IMG/VR virus record: IMGVR_UViG_643348551_000010
Length of the DNA stretch: 36,896 nucleotides
From: a virus
Taxonomy: Duplodnaviria; Heunggongvirae; Uroviricota; Caudoviricetes
Strand: one strand, 5' to 3'
Positions 8,905 to 36,896 of this stretch are shown here, piece by piece. The notes beneath the pieces are model-generated. The model saw only the letters and a list, made by a program, of their open reading frames with translations, ran no database searches and was not told where the DNA came from. A program made the translations under genes and the position numbers. Numbering within the stretch: the first letter of the stretch is position 1; each line of letters opens with the position of its first letter.

Positions 8905-10384
8905 TAATCACCTCAATACTGACACCACCGGGAACAAATAACGGGTTGCTGATACCGTTCCTGCGGGCCAGCCGTTGCCAGTTCCGGCTGTTTCCGGTGA
9001 ACCGGTACAGTGCAACCATTGCCGGGAGCGTTTCTGGCAGGTGGTGTGATTCACTACCCGCCAGTTGCAGCCCGCGTTTTTCCAGGTCGGCAACAACCAG
9101 CAGACGCAGTTGCGTAAGCTGAACACTGTCTGTCGAAAAACCCTGCTCAGATGCCGTCAGAATGACGCTATCCAGCGCCGCCCCTAGCATGGCAGTTGTT
9201 TTTTCGATATCGGACACGCTTTCAAATACCGGGGGCGTGGCTGTGCTACTGTCTGAAAAGGATACTGGTGAAAAGCCGCCGTCCGGGGTTATCCCGGTTA
9301 ACTGCAACTGGCTTTGTGTGACCGTGGACGATGTGCTGCTGGCACCACTGGCGATGCCGGTTGTTGTGACTGATACATCCAGCGCCGGTGCGCGGGCGGC
9401 ATTATCCATCTGACGGCTGGAATCCAGTGCCGCAGTCAGTGCCTGGCTTGCTGCCTCCGCCCGGTATGTCTGTGCTGCTGCCAGCATGACGTAGTTCAGT
9501 GTGGCAATATTTTTTTCTGCAACCGGGCTGCTGTATGAAGTGGTAATGGCACCTTGTCTGTCAGTGGTGGAGGCATGTCGGCTTTCGAACCGCTGCGCCA
9601 GACGGTTCCAGGTGGAAAATGCTGTTCGGGTATCGCATAACGATGAAACGCCGGATAACGCCCCCATCAGTGAAGATGTCAGCATGGCTGGTTTATTTAT
9701 CAGGCCGGTCACAGAACCTTTCATTGCAGAAAGTAACCCCATCAGGCCGCTGACAGTCTGGGTGATCCCCAGATTATCCACCGCATCACAGATATCATCG
9801 ATGACACCGGTGACGGCATCCATTACGGCTGTTGCCGCCGCTGTGCCATCTTTTACGGTCTGCCAGACAGAGGACAACGTATCCCCCAGCGAACCGGTTA
9901 CAGCAACGGCCTGCGCAGATACGGCTGTACTGGTGTCTGTTTCTGCGTCCGGGGCTGTATCCTGCAACGACGGATAAACGGTAACGGTGAACGCGTAATA
10001 ATTCAGTTCATCCGCTTTAGTACGGCATTCCCATGAATCCACCATGACGTCCACAGTGCCGAACTCTGGATGCACCAGTTCGCCGCTGCCCGGTGCATCA
10101 AGAGCATCCATCAGCGCACCCGCTTCATCTCTGGCAGTCTCTGCGTTGCTGTTCAGAATGCAGATGCTGAATGTGCGGGAGCGAAGTTTTTTCCCCAGGT
10201 CATTGACACCGCCGGTATCACGTAACGGGTACTCGCGTTTAACCAGACGACGTCCGCCAGCCTGTTTTTGCTCCTCAATGACGAGAAACGGCACGTTACG
10301 GAACGTGCCTTTGCCGGTTGTTTTCTTACCACCGCCGATTTTATCCCGGACAGAATTAACGGCATTTAAAGCATCTTCAAACAT
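8897..10384 (-). CDS. N: DNA circularisation protein N-like tail protein
   Basis: 495 aa directly downstream of the tape measure gene, as in Mu. Confidence 0.75.
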
Positions 10385-10388
10385 GGTT

Positions 10389-12500
10389 TTACCAGCCTGT
10401 AATGTAGTTATCGCCCGCGTAAATATTCAGCCCCATACCATCCTCGGTGACGCGGGAACTGGTCAGACGTAATCCTTCGCCAAGCTCGACGCGCAGCGAT
10501 GCTTCCGCATTCACTTTTTGCTCCTGCGGTTCCCTTTCCGGGGCCGTCCATTTCTGATACAGGTCAGTCACAAAACCGCCCAGATATTCCCCCGCGACAC
10601 TGCCCAGCGTGGCACCGGCAACCGTGCCCAGCGGTCCGGCAAGGCTGCCAACGGCACCGCCGAGCCAGGCGCCGGCAGTGCTGCCAATTGCTCCGGCTTT
10701 CTCATGAGTTGATGCCTGTTCATCCATCAGAACGGGAGCAAGCTGGAGCGCCCCCATCACCGGACCGCCAAGACGTGACAGTGCACGACCCGCGCCTTTC
10801 CCCATCCAGCCCAGCGCCCCGGCCCCTTTTGTCACAACCCGACCCATGGCACTGTCTGCGAGTTTGTTTCCGATACCGGAAAACAACCCTCCAACGGTAC
10901 GACCGGCACCAGCCAGCTTTCCGATTGTTCCCGTAACCAGTTGTCCGGCAGCACTGCCTGCAAGCCTGCTCAACAGACCGGATTTGCCGGGCAAAGGTAA
11001 CGATGCGTGCCGTGTGGCCCCCAGCGCACCGGGAGATGGCAATGCCAGTACCGGAGACGGTGCAGGTAATGCCAGTGGTTTCGGTGCTGGTAATGCGGGA
11101 ACAGTGCGTGGGGCCGGAAGTGCCAGCGGTTGTGGCCCGGACAGCAATAACGGCTGGCGGGGCAATGCTGCCGGTGTTTTACCTCCGTATCGGGAAAATC
11201 CGCCATATCCACCGAACCCGTTGGGCCAGTTAGTCACAAAAACGCGCTGAACTGTCAGTTCCCGCAGTAGTTCTGTAGCAGGTAGCGCATCCGGTGCCGG
11301 AATGCCTGTCTGCCCATGTTTGCGTTTTCGCATCCAGCGCCACATACGACGCCCGGTTTTGAACGGATAGCTGGCAACCTGCCATGATGGCTTCGCCACG
11401 GCCCAGCCCGCCCTCAGTGCTTTATTGGCAAGCCAGACAGACACCAGAACAGCAGCCAGTTTTTTCAGGCTGACAATATTCTGGTCAACCCATGCCAGCG
11501 CATCTTTACCCGGTTTCAGCCAGCGCCATAACTCCTGTGCCGCAGCTTTCAGGGTTCTGAATGTGGTCAGGAATTTCTGACCAATTTCATCAGCCCGTTT
11601 ATCAAGCTCCCCGGATTTATCCGCCGCATCGTGCCAGTTAAGCACCCGGCGCATCTCATTCTTGATTTCTTCAAAAGGGCCGCTGTTCATCACCCTGACG
11701 GCAAACTCGTTCCAGTTAGCCTCCATCTGTGCCGTCATCCCTGACCACGAGTTCATGGCTGCGGCCTGTGCGCCTTTTGATTGTTCTGACAGCGCCCTGA
11801 ATACCATCAGGATCGACTTCAGCCCCAGTTTGCCTTTTTCCCCTTGCTTTCGGATTTCCTTAACGTCTTTACCCAGCGCATCAGCCAGTGTCTGGTAAAC
11901 GTTGATACCGTAGCCGGTCAGCAGGTTGGCATCTGCCGCTGTGATTTGCTGGCGGGCGAACATCTGTTTCAGTTGCAGCGAGGCCCCCTGCGCAGCAGAT
12001 AAATCCCAACCGTGTAATGCCCCCTGATCCTGCAACATGGTGATGAACTGCTTCGTCTGTTCATCCGTCATGCCAAAGCCTTTCGACGAGCGAATTTCAT
12101 CCAGAACGCCGCCCAGCCCCCACGTGGTATCCTTCGCGTTCTGCTTCGCCCAGGCCATCATTGCCTGCGCTCTGGCCTTATCGCCGTGATACAGCGAGTT
12201 CATGGCGATAATCTGCTGCTCACGTTGAGCTGCTGCGCTGATAAACAGTTTATTGGCGGTGTAACCCACCCCGGCAACACCCAGCGCCCCGGCTGACAGC
12301 ATTCGGAATGTACGGGTTGAGAGGGAACCCATTCTGTCAATGGCACCAGACACGCGCACCACTTCCATACGCAGGGCACGCAGGGAACTTTGCCCACTAC
12401 GGGACAGGGCGTTTATCTGGTTCGAATACTGGCGGGAACGCCGGGAAAGATTGCCATTAAGGTCAATAATGACTGACGCTTTTAAGCGTTTCCCGGTCAT
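10389..12500 (-). CDS. Tail tape measure protein
   Basis: 703 aa, Gly/Ala-rich with a Pro-Ala repeat block (PLALPAP...), located between tube/chaperone genes and baseplate genes. Confidence 0.85.
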
Positions 12501-23788: not shown

Positions 23789-23974
23789 ATGAAAGAAAAG
23801 CTGACCATTGACCAAAAAATTGAGATTGCAAAAATAGCAAGTGACTTTGTTATCGCTGGCATGAATACGAATAAACAGCCAGCGTGTCTTGCCGGTTCTG
23901 ATCAAAATGTGAAGTCAGAACGGGAGTTGTTAAAACATATTTATCAGTTGCTGGAGGCAATGATTACTGATTAA
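23789..23974 (+). CDS. Hypothetical 61-aa protein encoded antisense to the late operon
   Basis: ATG at 23789 with SD aagagg 5 nt upstream; occupies a 229-nt gap lacking any minus-strand ORF; ends convergently, 11-nt overlap with the 64-aa gene. Confidence 0.4.
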   Translation: MKEKLTIDQKIEIAKIASDFVIAGMNTNKQPACLAGSDQNVKSERELLKHIYQLLEAMITD

Positions 23975-24158
23975 TTTGTGACTCTCTGATGATCTGGCCC
24001 GCGATACGCGGGCCAACCACAATCTGCATTAACAGATACAGTGATTCGGCTTTTGTGACGATATGAATATTGCCCTCCTCAGCCAGCGCCGCTTCGACGA
24101 TGGGTTTGAGTTTCAGGGCAATTTCCGCAGACGTTTTTTCTTTGGTTTCAACAGCCAT
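23964..24158 (-). CDS. Small protein with hydrophobic C-terminal segment (possible membrane tether)
   Basis: 64 aa from ATG 24156-24158 with strong SD (aaggaga), coupled to the upstream gene stop at 24172-24174. Confidence 0.6.
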   Translation of the reverse strand: MAVETKEKTSAEIALKLKPIVEAALAEEGNIHIVTKAESLYLLMQIVVGPRIAGQIIRESQINQ

Positions 24159-24758: not shown

Positions 24759-25049
24759 TCAGAAGCGGGGACGTGGACGTTTGACACCGGAAACACGAGC
24801 CCGGCCTTCAGCCACATCCTGACCACGGGAGGTCAGCGTCACGACATAAAAGCCGCGCAGGTTTTCCACGGTGACAAGCTGCTGTTCTGCCAGCCAGTCA
24901 ATCTGACCACGAACCACATCACGTGAAACGTTATGCCCGTAAGCATCCAGGCAATCCTGCAAAATGGATTCGTTAGCCTCGTTATTGCAGTCCATCAGTG
25001 AACGCAGGATGACCAGGCGGCGATCCTGCGTCAGAATGTCGTCAATCAT
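24759..25049 (-). CDS. Hypothetical late protein
   Basis: 96-aa ORF tightly packed between lysis and packaging genes. Confidence 0.55.
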   Translation of the reverse strand: MIDDILTQDRRLVILRSLMDCNNEANESILQDCLDAYGHNVSRDVVRGQIDWLAEQQLVTVENLRGFYVVTLTSRGQDVAEGRARVSGVKRPRPRF

Positions 25050-25345
25050 TTGTTGTTCTCTCCGAGCGCCTTTTCGAGCAAAAGCTCCAGTTGATGGGTC
25101 AGCACCTGTATGTGCCGGTTCATCGCTTTCACTTCACCATTGGTTTCTGCGGTTTGTAACCGGACAGCATGTAAATCCTGTGCACTGGGCATGTTTTCGC
25201 ACTTCGTTTCAAGCGCGGTTAAACGGCTTTCGATTTGCTCCACACGTTCCGTACTGGCAAATGTACGCCTCACCGCCCACCACAAAATGCCACCAATGGT
25301 GCTGCCACTGCCTATCGAGTAGGTCAGCACTGAATAAATATCCAC
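25046..25345 (-). CDS. Lysis accessory membrane protein (N-terminal TM helix plus coiled coil; spanin- or releasin-like)
   Basis: 99 aa, GTG start at 25343-25345 just after the lys stop; hydrophobic N-terminus followed by heptad-like region. Confidence 0.55.
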   Translation of the reverse strand: MDIYSVLTYSIGSGSTIGGILWWAVRRTFASTERVEQIESRLTALETKCENMPSAQDLHAVRLQTAETNGEVKAMNRHIQVLTHQLELLLEKALGENNK

Positions 25346-25357
25346 ACGCTCTCCTGT

Positions 25358-25786
25358 TTACAGCCCTGACGACATACCCGGCATTAATCCCGGCACCGGT
25401 AACACATCATCATTCAGCAGCTGATTATTACGGGGAGCGGGCACAGCACCAGAACCGGCGCTGAACATAAACACCGCCAGTGCATTTTTTTGCTCCTCTG
25501 TCAGTGGCCTGTTCAGATGGGTATTTAACGTGTCATAAACAGGCTTCAAATCTGCTTTCAACAGCATGATGCATTCACCATAGCTGTAAGGGCGTTGCTG
25601 AATATCAGGACCGTGATGGTTAAGGCAAACAGTCAGTTCGCCGTGCTGATCTGTGTATGGAAGGTACTGAACAGAAGCCAGCGATGAATCACCATCGCCG
25701 GACAACTGCCAGCCACCACATGCCGCCAGTACCACGATGGCAAGCGTTCTGATGATGCGGGGGAGACGTTTTTTAAAATCGTTCAT
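25358..25786 (-). CDS. lys: Endolysin with signal-anchor / lipobox-like N-terminus (lysozyme-like core)
   Basis: 142 aa, ATG 25784-25786 with AGGAGG SD; N-terminus MNDFKKRLPRIIRTLAIVVLAACGG; core motif LTVCLNHHGPDI resembles lysozyme-like endolysins; first gene after C, as in Mu. Confidence 0.65.
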   Translation of the reverse strand: MNDFKKRLPRIIRTLAIVVLAACGGWQLSGDGDSSLASVQYLPYTDQHGELTVCLNHHGPDIQQRPYSYGECIMLLKADLKPVYDTLNTHLNRPLTEEQKNALAVFMFSAGSGAVPAPRNNQLLNDDVLPVPGLMPGMSSGL

Positions 25787-25858
25787 GAAACCCTCCTTCG
25801 GTAATAAAAGGAGGGTAACTCAGGGGAATTTGCAGACGGGGTTATTATTAATTAACAC

Positions 25859-25876
25859 AACCGGCCTGCACCGGTT
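25859..25876 (-). terminator. Stem-loop just downstream of C (candidate end of middle transcript)
   Basis: aaccgg / cctgca / ccggtt hairpin 13-30 nt after the C stop, followed by AT-rich sequence. Confidence 0.35.
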
Positions 25877-25888
25877 GATTGCTGTTAC

Positions 25889-26299
25889 TCAGAATAAATC
25901 GGGCTGATGTCGCCGTGAATGAAGTTTTCTCTGCCGGGCAATAATCTTGTAAATCTGCGGTTGTGACAGACGATGTTCACGCCGCAGCTCCTCTATGTTC
26001 CGACCGTTAAACTGGCAGTAAATCAGATCATCCCGCAACGCTGCCAGAAGTGCATCACCCCGGGGGATGTAATACTGCCGCCCCCCCAGGAACCATGATA
26101 AGGACATCACCTGTTTACGGGCTATGCTCCGTGCATCATCCACGCCCTGACGTTTCAGTTCTGTTTCCAGAACGTCAACCAGCTCAACCAGCGCGCGGGG
26201 CCAGCGGGCCTCCTGCTCAGGAGCCGGTATATTGTCGATATGATCCATTAACTGGCTTACAGCCGGATCATGTTCAAATAAATCCTGCTGATTTGTCAT
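25889..26299 (-). CDS. C: Late transcription activator C (Mor/C family)
   Basis: 136 aa; shares the C-terminal motif FNGRN..EL with the mor product at 27659-28048; located immediately upstream of the lysis genes. Confidence 0.85.
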   Translation of the reverse strand: MTNQQDLFEHDPAVSQLMDHIDNIPAPEQEARWPRALVELVDVLETELKRQGVDDARSIARKQVMSLSWFLGGRQYYIPRGDALLAALRDDLIYCQFNGRNIEELRREHRLSQPQIYKIIARQRKLHSRRHQPDLF

Positions 26300-26309
26300 T
26301 TTGCCCCCA

Positions 26310-26435
26310 TCAGCGAAAAACTAACAGACAGATCCCCGTGACTACGGCAAGCAGTGCAATAACTGTGATACCCTTCATCACCATCAGCAACGTAGCCATG
26401 CCGGAACATTCATTACTGAATCTTCTGTACATCAT
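26310..26435 (-). CDS. Very small single-TM protein (41 aa)
   Basis: ATG 26433-26435 forms an ATGA overlap with the stop of the upstream membrane-protein gene; hydrophobic core ITVIALLAVVTGICLLVF. Confidence 0.5.
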   Translation of the reverse strand: MMYRRFSNECSGMATLLMVMKGITVIALLAVVTGICLLVFR

Positions 26436-26812
26436 GCCTCCGCGCCAGACGGTACTGAACGTCGCAGACAGATATGGAGGCGAAAGCAAAACCATATGCT
26501 ACAGAAGCCAGATAAAGCATAAATCGTGAACTGATGCGCTTCTTCTAAAAGCCCGGTTGCAATAGCCGAAAGACTTAACCCGACGAGGCCACCAAGAAAA
26601 TCAATGGCATTAATAGAAGCATAACGTCGGATTTTTCCTGTCCGGGACAGATCATCAAAAATAGTGCCGGTAAAGCACAGCGCCACACTGAAAACGGCAG
26701 CATTCCAGAACAGCAGCGCCCGCAAACCATAAAACAAGCTGATAATCAGAATCAGCGCCAGCAACATGACCGGCAGACAATTTGGTAACAAATAACAGAA
26801 ACGCTTAAACAT
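26432..26812 (-). CDS. Integral membrane protein (multiple predicted TM segments)
   Basis: 126 aa, ATG 26810-26812, several hydrophobic stretches; middle-operon position upstream of C. Confidence 0.6.
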   Translation of the reverse strand: MFKRFCYLLPNCLPVMLLALILIISLFYGLRALLFWNAAVFSVALCFTGTIFDDLSRTGKIRRYASINAIDFLGGLVGLSLSAIATGLLEEAHQFTIYALSGFCSIWFCFRLHICLRRSVPSGAEA

Positions 26813-27023
26813 GATGCTTTTCCCTGTAACGCTGGCAGTGGTGAATAATTTCTGGCATATCGACTGACTGCCAGCCTTTCATGTAATAGCTCCCGTGGGT
26901 GCCATCGTGCCCTGTGTAATCCATTGGCTTTGGTGGTGGACCTCCGGCCTCCCGATGCAACACCTCCTGTCGTAAACGTTCGCGTCTGCCAAACCGAAAG
27001 GACGCATCCCACCCTTTACCCAT
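26805..27023 (-). CDS. Hypothetical middle-operon protein
   Basis: 72 aa; ATG 27021-27023 overlaps the stop of the muramidase gene, SD gggagg 8 nt upstream. Confidence 0.6.
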   Translation of the reverse strand: MGKGWDASFRFGRRERLRQEVLHREAGGPPPKPMDYTGHDGTHGSYYMKGWQSVDMPEIIHHCQRYREKHHV

Positions 27024-27576
27024 GCAGAACCTCCCGGCAGGCGCTGGCGAGCAGATCCAGACGGTTAAACCAGCCGTTCAGATATTTCCCCTGCGAGGCA
27101 CTGGATTTGATAATCCCTGCGTAATAGCGGGAACGACGCAGGAAACACTGCAACAGCAGCCAGTCAGTATCGGCACGCAGTACGGCTGCGCGAGTGTTTT
27201 TGCCGACGATGCCATCATCATCAACACCTGCTGCCGCCTGGAGGATTTGAATTGCGCGTTTAACACCGTGCTGAACGGCAGCATCAAAGACGAATAAGGA
27301 AACACCATCAGGCCATTCGTTACACTTTGCCGCCAGCCAGTAATCACGCCAGTAGATTTGCGCCGCCTGCTCGTGGGTTAAATCTTTAATACGGGTATCA
27401 GGCTTCCCGTCACCGTTAACATCGGTTTTGCCATCAATAACGCCGTCGCGACGGTCAGAAATGCCGTATTTGGTTTCGCCGCCACGGTCAGTGGGATCAT
27501 TAACGTAACCACCTTCAACATCAGGCCGTATAACAAAATTCAGCGAATGAAGGAATGCAGGGGAAAACTCAGGCAT
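27016..27576 (-). CDS. GH108-family peptidoglycan hydrolase-like protein (predicted muramidase with C-terminal PG-binding-like region)
   Basis: Motif EGGYVNDPTDRGGETKYGI typical of the GH108 N-terminal domain; start set at ATG 27574-27576 with SD aggaggg (the track start at 27609 is a GTG). Confidence 0.7.
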   Translation of the reverse strand: MPEFSPAFLHSLNFVIRPDVEGGYVNDPTDRGGETKYGISDRRDGVIDGKTDVNGDGKPDTRIKDLTHEQAAQIYWRDYWLAAKCNEWPDGVSLFVFDAAVQHGVKRAIQILQAAAGVDDDGIVGKNTRAAVLRADTDWLLLQCFLRRSRYYAGIIKSSASQGKYLNGWFNRLDLLASACREVLHG

Positions 27577-27632
27577 GTTGCCCTCCTGTAATGAACGTTT
27601 TATCGTCACAACAGAATATTGAGGGCGTAAAA

Positions 27633-27653
27633 AAAGCCGGATTAACCGGCTTT
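27633..27653 (-). terminator. Rho-independent terminator immediately downstream of mor (early-transcript terminator)
   Basis: aaagccgg / attaa / ccggcttt: 8-bp stem followed by a T5 run on the sense (minus) strand, 6 nt after the mor stop. Confidence 0.7.
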
Positions 27654-27658
27654 ACTGT

Positions 27659-28048
27659 TTAAAACAGAGGGGGTTGATACTGACGATACTTTATACGCCG
27701 CATTCGTCGGATGGCTTTATAGACAGTGTTAAACGTCACACCATAACGAATTGCCAGTTCGTGAACATTGCGCCCGTTAAAATCATTCCAGATTCGTAAA
27801 TCCCGAACCAGTGAATCCAGCACCTGCCCACGAGGAATATAGACCTGACCACCGCCAAGATGTTTACAGATAGCCACAACAATCTCCAGAGAGTGCGCAG
27901 GTTCAACGCCCAGCCGGGACAGTTCCTGACGCAGCACATCGTTCAGTTCCGCCAGCAGTGCCGGAAATCGTGACGTATCCCCGGATTCATTGTCAAGATG
28001 AGCCAGGATACTGTCATCCTGAAAGTCGCCAAACAAATCCTGCGTCAT
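27659..28048 (-). CDS. mor: Middle operon regulator Mor
   Basis: 129 aa; ATG overlaps the gemA stop (ATGA); paralog of C. Confidence 0.9.
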   Translation of the reverse strand: MTQDLFGDFQDDSILAHLDNESGDTSRFPALLAELNDVLRQELSRLGVEPAHSLEIVVAICKHLGGGQVYIPRGQVLDSLVRDLRIWNDFNGRNVHELAIRYGVTFNTVYKAIRRMRRIKYRQYQPPLF

Positions 28049-28611
28049 TGTGCCAGTCTCCGTGTTTTTCTTGCACGGGCATAAGCTGCTGTCATGGCAT
28101 CATAGCCACGCAGTTCACGCCCGGACGGGCTGACCGGCAACGGGAGCCCATAATGGGAAAAGGCTTCACGGATACAGCGGATGTGCCACTGTTTCAGGGT
28201 TTCAAGCACAATTTGTAACGATTCTCCGTGACACCACGCCAGCGTGGAAACACCCTGTCCGCCATTACGTCTGGCTGTCAGTCGTTCGACGTATTTATCC
28301 AGTGCTGTATCACTGCCATCGGCAATAAAACCGTCTTCTGCCATTTGCTGCCAGATTTTTAATACCTTTTCGTGGGGCGTTACATGCCCATTAAAGCGAC
28401 GGCGTGGGTGTTTATTCTGCTTCTTAAAACCGCGTTCTTTCATGGCATCGAGCACCAGCTCCAGTTGCGCGACGGTCAGCTCACGGCAACTGATTTTGCC
28501 CGTGTTCTGCATCAGAAAGGCACGGTAGGTGTCGTCGTCGAGTTGTAGCTCCCGACGGGCGACATGGATTAATTTAATAAGCGATGTGCGATTCACTTGC
28601 TCACCTCTCAT
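28045..28611 (-). CDS. gemA: GemA (host gene expression modulation protein)
   Basis: 188 aa from ATG 28609-28611 (MRGEQVNRTS...); immediately upstream of mor, as in Mu. Confidence 0.8.
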   Translation of the reverse strand: MRGEQVNRTSLIKLIHVARRELQLDDDTYRAFLMQNTGKISCRELTVAQLELVLDAMKERGFKKQNKHPRRRFNGHVTPHEKVLKIWQQMAEDGFIADGSDTALDKYVERLTARRNGGQGVSTLAWCHGESLQIVLETLKQWHIRCIREAFSHYGLPLPVSPSGRELRGYDAMTAAYARARKTRRLAQ

Positions 28612-28626
28612 ATTAAGGAATGAGAT

Positions 28627-29043
28627 ATGAAAATTGATTATGACGAGATAGCCAGAATATTTGATGTATTCCTGGAGGCCGACACTGCATTCATTCGACT
28701 GGAAGATGTCGGCTGGGATCGTTCTCAGCGGCACAGCGACAGCCATCAGAAGCTGGTTTTCCATCTTCTGTTGCTGGTTGAAAATGGTTTTATCAGCAAC
28801 AGATATCTGGAAACAGGCACCGCAAAAAGCATTGGTCTCACCCCGACAAGCCTCGGATATTCATATTCAGGCACCAGTGTCAGACTCACACAAGATGGTC
28901 ATGATTTTGCGAAAGCACTACATCAAAAACCCATTCTTGAGCGTATAAAACAGGAGCTTGCCGACGCCCCGATGACGCTCGTAACAGACGTCGGCAAACA
29001 GTGGTTAACCTCGTTTCTTAAAAAGAAACTCGGGATTGAATAG
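28627..29043 (+). CDS. Hypothetical 138-aa protein encoded opposite to the early operon (candidate prophage-expressed accessory gene)
   Basis: ATG 28627 with SD aagga 7 nt upstream; fills a 393-nt interval with no minus-strand ORF; start codon only 15 nt from the divergent gemA start; 3' end converges on the next early gene. Confidence 0.6.
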   Translation: MKIDYDEIARIFDVFLEADTAFIRLEDVGWDRSQRHSDSHQKLVFHLLLLVENGFISNRYLETGTAKSIGLTPTSLGYSYSGTSVRLTQDGHDFAKALHQKPILERIKQELADAPMTLVTDVGKQWLTSFLKKKLGIE

Positions 29044-35421: not shown

Positions 35422-35590
35422 TCTGCGATCCTTACTCACTTAACGTTTTCGGTAACTGATACCGGCTACCGCTATCGGGAAAAACGATAGCGCAGAAAAA
35501 TGCGCATTTCAAGAGCTGTGCGCATTTTTATTTTAACAAATGCAAATCAAAGCATTCTGTAAAATTTTTTATATAACAGAGAGATTTAAC
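35422..35590. promoter_or_regulatory. Divergent early / repressor promoter-operator region between ner and c
   Basis: Perfect 8-bp inverted repeat cgctatcg-N7-cgatagcg at 35470-35492; direct repeats TGCGCATTT at 35501-35509 and 35519-35527; AT-rich tatata upstream of c. Confidence 0.6.
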
Positions 35591-36199
35591 ATGACAGGCG
35601 AAAAAGAAAGCAAAAATGCAGAGCGCATTTTTATGCCCTCGGAAATAATGCGTTTCAAGGAACGCCTTGAAGAGGCAATGAATGGAGAATCAAGCCGGGC
35701 GTTTGCAGCTAAGTGCGGACTTTCTGATGGGGTTATCAGAAACTACCTGTCTGGCAAGACATACCCGTCTTTAGATCGATTAGCACAAATAGCCTACGCA
35801 ACAGGGCGTCCAATAGAGTGGTTTATCCAAAGTCAGAGCATGCCAATGGTTGAGCATAAAAATGCTCGAGAGAATAAAAATCCTCAACCTGACCGCAGCA
35901 CATTGAAAACTAAACTGATCGCAATTGTCGAATTGTTAGAGGACAAGGAACTGCATTCTGCGATTGAGTTGTTCAGAAAGAAAGGATTTGAAGCTCTTAT
36001 GCCTGAGATTTTTTCTTCCGATGATTCCATCCAGGCTGATTTGCAAGGTATTTCGCAGCAAACCTTACAAACAGCCAAAATGCTTGAATCATTACCAACA
36101 GATACCCGTAAAGAGATTTTGTCAAAGTATGGTATTTATGAACAGGAATGTCTTGTAGCTCCTTCACAAGAACCACAAGATGTAAAAAAAGCCGTATAA
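35591..36199 (+). CDS. c: Prophage repressor c (lysogeny maintenance); N-terminal DNA-binding domain appears to differ from Mu c (from memory)
   Basis: Only long leftward gene at the phage left end; C-terminus ...SKYGIYEQECLVAPSQEPQDVKKAV resembles the Mu repressor C-terminus; start set at ATG 35591, alternative at 35540. Confidence 0.85.
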   Translation: MTGEKESKNAERIFMPSEIMRFKERLEEAMNGESSRAFAAKCGLSDGVIRNYLSGKTYPSLDRLAQIAYATGRPIEWFIQSQSMPMVEHKNARENKNPQPDRSTLKTKLIAIVELLEDKELHSAIELFRKKGFEALMPEIFSSDDSIQADLQGISQQTLQTAKMLESLPTDTRKEILSKYGIYEQECLVAPSQEPQDVKKAV

Positions 36200-36365: not shown

Positions 36366-36537
36366 TTTTCGTATTTTCAATGAAACAAAAGCAATTTTTT
36401 ACTATCTTTCGCGTTTCATTGATTAACGACTAAAATTTGCGCTACAGGCTTGCAAGCCCCACCAAATCTAATCCCATCAGATCCCGAATAATCCAATGTC
36501 CTCCCGGTTTTTTTCGTACTTCAAGTGAATCAATACA
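36366..36537. repeat. Phage left end (attL) with three transposase-binding sites L1-L3
   Basis: Matches to the MuA end-site consensus at 36511-36532, 36406-36427 and 36366-36387 (TTTTCG...TGAA..CA type on this strand); terminus caataca at 36531-36537. Confidence 0.8.
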
Positions 36538-36896
36538 ATCGGGATCACCAATGGAAGCTCTTTATAGCCCGCATCAAGATGGTTTTGCATTGCCGCAATG
36601 GAATAACGCATCATGCGAAAAGCCATTAATTCTTCCGGCTTACTTTGGTGCTCTATCACTACATAAATATAACCCACTCCCTCCTGCGTTTTCACAGACC
36701 ACAAGAGGTCGGAATAATATTGCCGCAGGTCGTCATCAATAAAACTGTTTGGTTCCAGTTTAAGCGTCGTTAAATCACACAGTTTGCGCAGCGGCGCGGG
36801 AAGATGAATATCAATAAAATCCCGCGCGGTGTCTGGATGGCGTAAAAAAGATTTAAATACCGCATCATGCGGCGTGGAAGTTGTCGATATTGTCAT
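36538..36896 (-). pseudogene. Host rpn-family (YhgA-like, PD-(D/E)XK recombination-promoting nuclease) gene, 5' portion only, disrupted by prophage insertion
   Basis: ORF starts [33 protein letters not shown]...IEHQS (Rpn-like N-terminus), reads for about 119 codons, then continues 20 codons into the phage end before stopping at 36477. Confidence 0.7.

Follow-up and report, generated by a model that had tools for sequence, protein, structure and literature searches.

A GH108 muramidase gene at the head of the middle operon of a Mu-like prophage and its probable role as endolysin gene

Introduction

Coliphage N4 gp61 is the type enzyme of the phage endolysins of family GH108. The Acinetobacter phage endolysins ElyA1 and ElyA2 belong to the same family (PMC7188820), while among its bacterial relatives TtsA has a catalytic triad of Glu14, Asp19 and Thr28 and the catalytic domain of Sen1395 can substitute for that of TtsA with full function (PMC6996933). 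Bacteriophage Mu is a paradigm phage, for which the lysis pathway was worked out only in 2022; its genes from mor to C are arranged in the order mor, middle promoter Pm, gp18, gp19, gp20 and C (AF083977). The present analysis concerns a GH108 gene located between mor and gp18 in IMG/VR record IMGVR_UViG_643348551_000010, a stretch of 36,896 nucleotides (below: the window) carrying a Mu-like (Muvirus-type) prophage in reverse orientation. We consider it fairly probable, judging from sequence comparisons, that this gene encodes the working endolysin of the window phage.

The GH108 gene product

A domain search with the 186-aa product against Pfam gave matches well above the cutoffs to Glyco_hydro_108 (PF05838; E=3e-24, 85.8 bits with a cutoff of 21.2) and PG_binding_3 (PF09374; E=7e-14, 52.2 bits with a cutoff of 24.6), in agreement with the GH108-type hydrolase proposed in the preliminary description of this DNA, which had been made from the sequence alone. 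The motif VEGGYVNDPTDRGGETKYGI is present in the product, which was placed by PHROGs in phrog_315 'endolysin' (E=3.5e-51). The NCBIfam model 'holin-associated N-acetylmuramidase' gave a weak match below its cutoff (69.5 bits, cutoff 240). Among proteins of the PDB, phmmer matched the product to NMB1012 (E=7e-20), and Brucella SagA, Sen1395 and TtsA were also matched by sequence.

The catalytic residues, on which the preliminary description had made its assignment depend, are largely kept on alignment: E21 and T35 are found at the positions of the TtsA catalytic Glu14 and Thr28, and at the Asp19 position the product, like Sen1395 and NMB1012, has an Asn (N26), next to D27 and D30. Residues E21, Y24, N26, D27, D30, G32, G33, E34 and T35 are invariant in 25 homologues (65-99% identical). 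The AlphaFold2 (AF2) model of the product has a mean predicted local distance difference test score (pLDDT) of 84, the catalytic flap (residues 22-33) being of low confidence, and a Foldseek search with this model retrieved 7DNP, 2IKB, 6V3Z and 6V40 (SagA, NMB1012, Sen1395 and TtsA) with probability 1.00 and template modelling (TM) scores of 0.5-0.7.

No transmembrane segment, signal sequence or hydrophobic segment was found in the product (maximal Kyte-Doolittle value over 19 residues 0.93), and it is therefore predicted to be a soluble cytoplasmic protein. Pairwise ratios of nonsynonymous to synonymous substitution rates (dN/dS) of the gene with its relatives range from 0.02 to 0.17 with dS up to about 2; because of these values, and because the same genes, including the GH108 label, are annotated by RefSeq in a 99%-identical E. 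coli prophage, a chance open reading frame (ORF) is not a reasonable reading. At the family level, the sequence matches and the model identify the predicted product as an intact soluble GH108/PG_binding_3 muramidase. The enzyme itself is an ordinary member of GH108, already so labelled by RefSeq.

An invariant acidic loop, D-x-R-D-G-x-x-D-G-x-x-D-x-x-G-D-x-x-P including DVNGDGKPD, is encoded at window positions 27399-27455 (residues about 41-59) and resembles calcium-binding loops of the DxDxDG type. NMB1012, SagA, Sen1395 and the homologue of the Vibrio phage lack about 12-14 residues of this loop.

Organization of the middle operon

The following features were recognized between mor and the end of the middle operon:

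28048-27659, minus strand (27659-28048): mor, middle operon activator; 129 aa, Pfam Mor E=4e-33, 87.5% identical to Mu Mor
27596-27666, minus strand: middle promoter of the Pm type that overlaps the early terminator hairpin; 55/71 identities with the Mu Pm annotation
27016-27576, minus strand: gene of the GH108 plus PG_binding_3 N-acetylmuramidase family (Pfam), first cistron after Pm; 186 aa, predicted soluble
26805-27023, minus strand: orthologue of Mu gp18; 72 aa, soluble, 85% identical to Mu gp18, phrog_2121
26432-26812, minus strand: orthologue of Mu gp19; 126 aa, multiple transmembrane (TM) protein with several hydrophobic segments, 40% identical to Mu gp19, phrog_4975
26310-26435, minus strand: orthologue of Mu gp20; 41 aa, single TM segment at residues 22-40, 39% identical to Mu gp20, phrog_19823
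25889-26299, minus strand: C, late gene activator and last gene of the middle operon; 136 aa, 75% identical to Mu C, Pfam Mor family E=2e-32
25858-25877, minus strand: terminator-like hairpin after C, found by terminator scan, then a Plys-like stretch; aligns with the Mu C terminator and Plys region

The GH108 gene starts with an ATG at 27576, preceded at 5 nt by the ribosome-binding site AGGAGGG, and stops at 27016. Its ATG lies 82 nt from the mor stop codon and 57 nt from the terminator stem, the latter being exactly the distance given before. The stop codon of the GH108 gene overlaps the gp18 start in ATGGGTAA (27016-27023), that of gp18 overlaps the gp19 start in ATGTTTAA (26805-26812) and that of gp19 overlaps the gp20 start in ATGA (26432-26435), while the ATG of C (26299) is located 10 nt past the gp20 stop. 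The GH108 gene thus heads a translationally coupled block ending with C, which confirms the coupling to genes for a 72-aa, a multi-TM and a 41-aa single-TM protein upstream of C that had been read from the ORFs.

The preliminary description had left undecided whether this block is native Mu content or a later addition. Alignment with the Mu middle operon showed that the three small genes are native; the operon as a whole has Pm directly upstream, gp18-gp20 in between and C at the end. The GH108 gene is absent from Mu, yet it is likelier to be ancestral than added, as discussed below. The gp19 gene is deleted in a Salmonella example and in many Mu-type loci, in which gp20 is kept. No match to Pfam or NCBIfam was found for gp18, gp19 and gp20 in the local copies of these databases; a newer Pfam family, Phage_Mu_gp18, is listed by other sources and is not in the local Pfam copy. 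An Rfam scan of positions 25000-28300 gave nothing above noise. A fusion of gp18 with a 202-aa membrane protein, hinted at by phrog_2121, was also considered; an exhaustive gp18 search yielded 14 representatives, 12 of them of 51-109 aa, and no convincing fusion.

Middle promoter and expression class

After mor an early terminator hairpin is present, AAAGCCGG-TTAA-CCGGCTTT (stem 27634-27653), followed by a T run. The preliminary description had found no obvious middle promoter in the short gap. This view has to be revised, since the 71-nt annotated Mu Pm (9163-9233) aligns with window positions 27666-27596 with 55/71 identities and overlaps this hairpin. The differences from Mu lie nearly all downstream of the -10 element, and the Mor-binding region and the stretch of the terminator hairpin are nearly identical. 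One position differs between the Mu hexamer TATCCT and TATTCT in the window, the latter being, by the Mu annotation, the probable -10 hexamer of the window promoter. In Mu, Mor binds a 16-bp dyad centred at -43.5 in Pm, a promoter without -35 element (PMC4390567). A generic sigma-70 scan accordingly detected no promoter in the gap between mor and the GH108 gene, as is expected for a promoter lacking this element.

The hairpin core is kept 70-80 nt upstream of the GH108 gene, or of gp18 where GH108 is absent, in 66/66 fetched loci containing the region, even in loci of which the proteins are just 60-75% identical. The identity with Mu Pm suggests that the window promoter is Mor-dependent, and its conserved position upstream of the GH108 gene indicates that the latter would be the first gene transcribed from it. 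In one related contig (L006, about 2410-2500) the Pm hairpin and spacer are tandemly duplicated between mor and the GH108 gene, the contig being otherwise identical.

The closest solved relatives of the product (SagA, TtsA and Sen1395) are secretion-associated muramidases and the gene would be expressed before the late genes, which raises the question of a non-lytic function, such as local peptidoglycan remodelling as by TtsA and SagA or a virion-associated role in entry. The gene should however be silent in the lysogen because it is under Mor control, its product has no signal sequence, and it lies outside the region of the structural genes. In hundreds of phages a homologue carries an endolysin annotation or serves as endolysin, in line with the name of phrog_315. 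A virion or secretion role was therefore judged to be very improbable.

The late region downstream of C

Two genes follow the C terminator on the same strand, so that all genes from mor to the last of them (mor, GH108, gp18-gp20, C, late lys and DUF2730) are on the minus strand:

25358-25786, minus strand: late 'lys' replacement, truncated lysozyme-like protein; 142 aa, lipobox L20-A21-A22-C23, Ala37 at the position of the catalytic Glu
25046-25345, minus strand: DUF2730 protein, homologue of the Mu gp25 releasin; 99 aa, Pfam DUF2730 E=3e-16, 42% identical to Mu gp25

The GH108 gene is physically apart from this region, as previously noted. A canonical endolysin had been assumed to lie after C. 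This assumption does not hold on comparison with Mu gp22, the endolysin of the signal-arrest-release (SAR) type. The Pfam Phage_lysozyme match of the 142-aa protein covers only profile positions 6-93 of 125, and the protein aligns without gaps to Mu gp22 residues 4-111. Where Mu has the triad E-X8-D-X5-T, the window protein has A37-X8-D46-X5-T52, the catalytic E37 being lost and D46 and T52 kept; in the work of Chamblee et al., the E37A variant of Mu gp22 was the inactive control (PMC9239132). The protein is about 60 residues shorter than Mu gp22, a disordered Pro/Gly-rich tail replacing the C-terminal lobe, and its N-terminus (...TLAIVVLAAC23GGWQL) is a lipoprotein signal with lipobox where Mu has a Gly/Ala-rich SAR domain. 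It thus lacks the complete triad, the SAR domain and the full-length fold of a Mu-type SAR endolysin. It keeps positive charges at K6 and R7, and such charges at positions 6-7 make Mu gp22 releasin-dependent. The AF2 model is too poor for a fold search (pLDDT 55), with a confident core at about residues 45-112 and unstructured residues 1-38 and 114-142. The 142-aa protein is consequently predicted to be a catalytically dead, truncated lipoprotein derivative of the SAR lysozyme.

Five sequence clusters of this family were found in E. coli and Salmonella diarizonae (64-99% identical, 138-142 aa), all of which keep the lipobox. Throughout the family the Glu position is A or D, and variation also occurs at the D and T positions. 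The dN/dS values of 0.16-0.21 indicate that the protein is under selection and not a fresh pseudogene.

The 'membrane partner' that had been placed after C turned out to be the DUF2730 protein, which has a divergent Gly-rich N-terminal segment and of which the gene is inherited together with the 142-aa gene. Comparison with Mu revealed neither spanin genes (Mu gp23/gp23.1) nor a TraR-like gp24 gene between these two genes: where Mu has about 1.6 kb with lys, the spanins, gp24 and most of gp25 (10365-11965), the window has about 0.8 kb of replacement sequence (25098-25891). Every locus of the 142-aa family that reaches far enough upstream has GH108-gp18-(gp19)-gp20-C there, and all five clusters lie downstream of GH108. 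Of the two cell-wall-active modules in different temporal classes proposed earlier, the placement of GH108 in the middle operon apart from the late genes stands; the late protein is predicted to be inactive, so that there is probably one active enzyme and not two.

The halving of the cassette and the rarity of this prophage type, which among 5426 complete E. coli genomes was found (at 99% identity) in two strains, PEC422 and TUM9757, can also be read as signs of a lysis-defective prophage, in which the late cassette has been destroyed by deletion or replacement and GH108 and its neighbours are merely carried along. A fresh defect is argued against by the replacement cassette itself, which in relatives of 64-89% identity in E. 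coli and Salmonella diarizonae has kept its length and is under selection. Moreover, the structural genes and the rest of the genome are colinear with Mu at about 93% DNA identity, and the ORFs spanning the structural region are, as judged by their length, Mu-like. We regard a defective prophage as improbable.

Distribution and direction of change

Fifty-nine IMG/VR viral contigs encoding a gp18 relative were fetched and annotated by tblastn. GH108 precedes gp18 in 46 of them. It is directly upstream of gp18 in ten near-Mu contigs, two being of the window type, and upstream of gp18 in 36/36 contigs of a distant enterobacterial clade (gp18 65-75%, GH108 60-76% and Mor 59-65% identical), while the 13 Mu-proper contigs are without it. 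A scan of genome contigs with a gp18 pattern gave at least one locus. GH108 has no counterpart in Mu, D108 and SfMu, and window positions 27024-27611 are one of the few segments without Mu homology. Among deposited phages with gp18, GH108 was found only in vB_YpM_5, vB_YpM_6 and a third, more distant phage that is probably Klebsiella phage Kp4866-3.

The gene order in the distant clade is gemA, mor, hairpin, GH108, gp18, gp19-like membrane protein, 202-aa membrane protein, TraR (the equivalent of Mu gp24), DUF2730 (gp25), gp26, gp27 and terminase. Neither a C paralogue nor a Mu-type lysozyme was found in its IMG/VR loci by tblastn over 10 kb. In the whole Mu-like prophage of E. coli RM11911, GH108 is the sole annotated peptidoglycan hydrolase, together with one Mor-family gene. 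The plaque-forming Vibrio phage 1.028.O has the order Mor-x-GH108-gp18-p202-TraR-DUF2730, with identities of 43% for GH108, 35% for gp18 (E=2e-11) and 41% for the 202-aa homologue, and its GH108 protein is given as the cognate endolysin of its DUF2730 protein in Table S1 of Chamblee et al. (PMC9239132). In these more distant Mu-like phages, GH108 is the only lysozyme annotated or found in the stretches examined.

GH108, gp18 and Mor show a similar divergence between the clades (about 71, 71 and 64% identity, respectively), which fits vertical descent. Because the presence of GH108 is both the majority and the outgroup state among Mu-like phages, the gene is, by parsimony, probably an ancestral one that Mu has lost and not a recent gain. 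The comparison suggests that the Mu middle operon is what remains of the front end of an older lysis operon, of which the first gene, for a GH108 endolysin, has been cut off. In the ancestral state, a single Mor-type activator would have been followed immediately by GH108-gp18 as the first genes of the lysis and late region. The Mu lineage would later have gained C, SAR lysozyme and spanins downstream, after which Mu proper would have deleted GH108. In the sublineage of the window the SAR lysozyme would have become the dead truncated lipoprotein and the spanins would have been lost, leaving GH108 as sole predicted active muralytic enzyme.

Some further observations were made on the distant phages. 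The RM11911 prophage (L071, whole) and the Vibrio phage (L072, 10 kb) have a single Mor-family activator and no C paralogue, and in the distant Mu-like phages (L029-L064, L065/L071 and L072) a Pm-type hairpin is located directly before the GH108-led lysis and head genes. This arrangement would point to a two-step rather than a three-step transcription cascade, with C arising later. The distant clade and the Vibrio phage have an extra gene, for a protein of 150-169 aa, in the interval from mor to the hairpin (L053, 3789-4298; L072, 3634-4086); its product has an N-terminal hydrophobic segment and no family match.

Proposed role of GH108 in lysis

The GH108 protein is considered the probable functional endolysin because it is the sole predicted active muralytic enzyme of the window phage. 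In the proposed course of events, Mor would activate Pm, and translation would begin with GH108, that of the small genes and C further downstream being coupled to it. Having no export signal, the enzyme would build up harmlessly in the cytoplasm from the middle phase on and degrade the peptidoglycan after a breach of the inner membrane. The endolysin gene would thus be located in the middle operon in the window, while in the outgroup Mu-like phages it is in the lysis region.

For the release step, the co-evolved DUF2730 protein and gp20 or gp19 are the candidates that could let GH108 reach the wall. In other Mu-like phages, according to Chamblee et al., the endolysins that accompany DUF2730 proteins are without a signal (PMC9239132). 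A more specific proposal, which we hold to be rather doubtful, is a rewired lysis in which GH108 would be the sole wall-degrading enzyme and the dead outer-membrane lipoprotein and the DUF2730 releasin would gate its release or replace the spanins; if true, this would be a tailed-phage system without holin, SAR endolysin or spanin.

Several points weigh against a role of GH108 as the working endolysin. No holin could be identified in the window, which also lacks the 202-aa membrane protein found after GH108-gp18-gp19 in the ancestral arrangement; this protein of the relatives is itself only a candidate holin (Pfam 'Holin of 3TMs', GTA_holin_3TM, E=0.03, below cutoff). Mu gp19 and gp20 have shown no holin behaviour and their inactivation left Mu lysis unaffected (PMC9239132). 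The EGGY motif of the window protein is not universal, the Vibrio homologue having DGGY. GH108 coexists with an intact SAR lysozyme and spanins in vB_YpM_5/6 and E. coli elppa5, and may for this reason be redundant there. Two members of the 142-aa family have Asp at the Glu position and the family is under purifying selection, so that its proteins may have a residual or a different activity. Finally, as set out above, the window prophage could be lysis-defective.

Part of this evidence leads to another explanation, namely that GH108 is a dispensable relic or accessory muramidase and that lysis proceeds via the 142-aa lipoprotein and DUF2730, or via a host or other factor. The complete Mu-type set of SAR lysozyme, spanins and releasin stands beside GH108 not only in vB_YpM_5/6 but also in several prophages; Mu, D108 and SfMu lyse without GH108; a cytoplasmic enzyme has no holin available for its release; and purifying selection acts on the 142-aa protein and its DUF2730 partner alike. 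A relic is nevertheless hard to reconcile with the very strong purifying selection on GH108 across the whole range of dS, or with the finding that it was never lost in any lineage with a dead lysozyme. The protein that would have to take over lacks both the catalytic Glu and the C-terminal lobe, and the outgroup phages have GH108 as their only lysozyme. We thus consider the relic explanation unlikely, and GH108 as the working endolysin remains the preferred reading.

Other features of the prophage

The Mu left end corresponds to window position 36537, positions 36538-36896 being host flank. The immunity region is unlike that of Mu: the segment 34993-36080 has no DNA homology to Mu c/ner, and a 219-aa repressor candidate with an HTH_3 domain is encoded at 35540-36199 on the plus strand, which would represent a different immunity type on a Mu backbone. 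A 138-aa gene without Mu counterpart is located on the opposite strand inside the early region (28627-29043, plus strand) and is possibly a moron; it gave no match in the local Pfam copy and is a DUF2513 protein according to RefSeq in the identical prophage. Between the genes of the small (gp27) and large terminase subunits, two convergent overlapping ORFs of 61 and 64 aa were found (23789-23974, plus strand, and 23964-24158, minus strand). They are not present in Mu, occur in four related prophages (L001, L067, L073 and L074) and gave no match in Pfam; a small pair of toxin-antitoxin-like genes or of morons is one possibility.

Comparison with known systems

In the literature searched, no description of a GH108 gene in a middle operon of the Mu type was found, and the paper on the Yersinia Mu-like phages is silent on GH108. 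Compared with this literature, GH108 as first middle-operon gene of Mu-type phages, with Mu genes 18-20 as putative remnants of an older lysis operon, is new, and so is its combination with a predicted dead, lipoprotein-type derivative of a SAR endolysin in the absence of spanins. Such an origin would provide Mu gp18-gp20 with an evolutionary context. The role of a releasin where there is no SAR endolysin to release is a question left by Chamblee et al. (PMC9239132), and natural variants in which a DUF2730 releasin occurs alongside a cytoplasmic endolysin and a predicted dead SAR lysozyme would offer a genetic system for it. As near-identical prophages are present in sequenced E. coli strains, the proposed role is directly testable in existing lysogens.

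The window shares with the Mu middle operon (Pm-gp18-gp19-gp20-C) the promoter/terminator element, the same three small genes with their order and overlapping codons, and the position of C at the end, before a terminator. In contrast to the window, with its 561-nt gene at this site, Mu is without GH108 and gp18 starts about 25 nt past the transcription start. As in the Mu lysis system (gp22, gp23/gp23.1 and gp25; PMC9239132), a lysozyme-like gene with a positive N-terminus (K6, R7) follows C and is itself followed by a DUF2730 gene. Unlike in Mu, the Glu is lost (A37), the C-terminal 60 residues are gone, a lipobox takes the place of the SAR domain, spanins and gp24 are missing, and the DUF2730 protein differs in its N-terminal segment and shares just 42% identity with its Mu homologue.

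The GH108 proteins of Salmonella (TtsA and Sen1395) and Brucella (SagA) are the best structural matches and have the same catalytic flap Glu and Thr, but they are non-lytic and function in bacterial secretion systems, whereas the window gene is part of a phage lytic operon under a phage activator. With the GH108 phage endolysins (N4 gp61, ElyA1/ElyA2 and those of Mu-like Vibrio phages) the window protein has in common the PF05838 and PF09374 domains, an EGGY-type motif and the lack of a secretion signal. The resemblance to the Mu-like Vibrio phages extends to Mor upstream and a gp18 homologue and DUF2730 downstream, although the TraR and the 202-aa membrane protein of these phages are missing from the window, and the window protein carries a conserved 14-residue acidic loop (about residues 45-58) absent from the Vibrio and solved homologues. 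Unlike the genes of the other GH108 phage endolysins, the window gene is severed from the late lysis genes by C and belongs to the middle temporal class.

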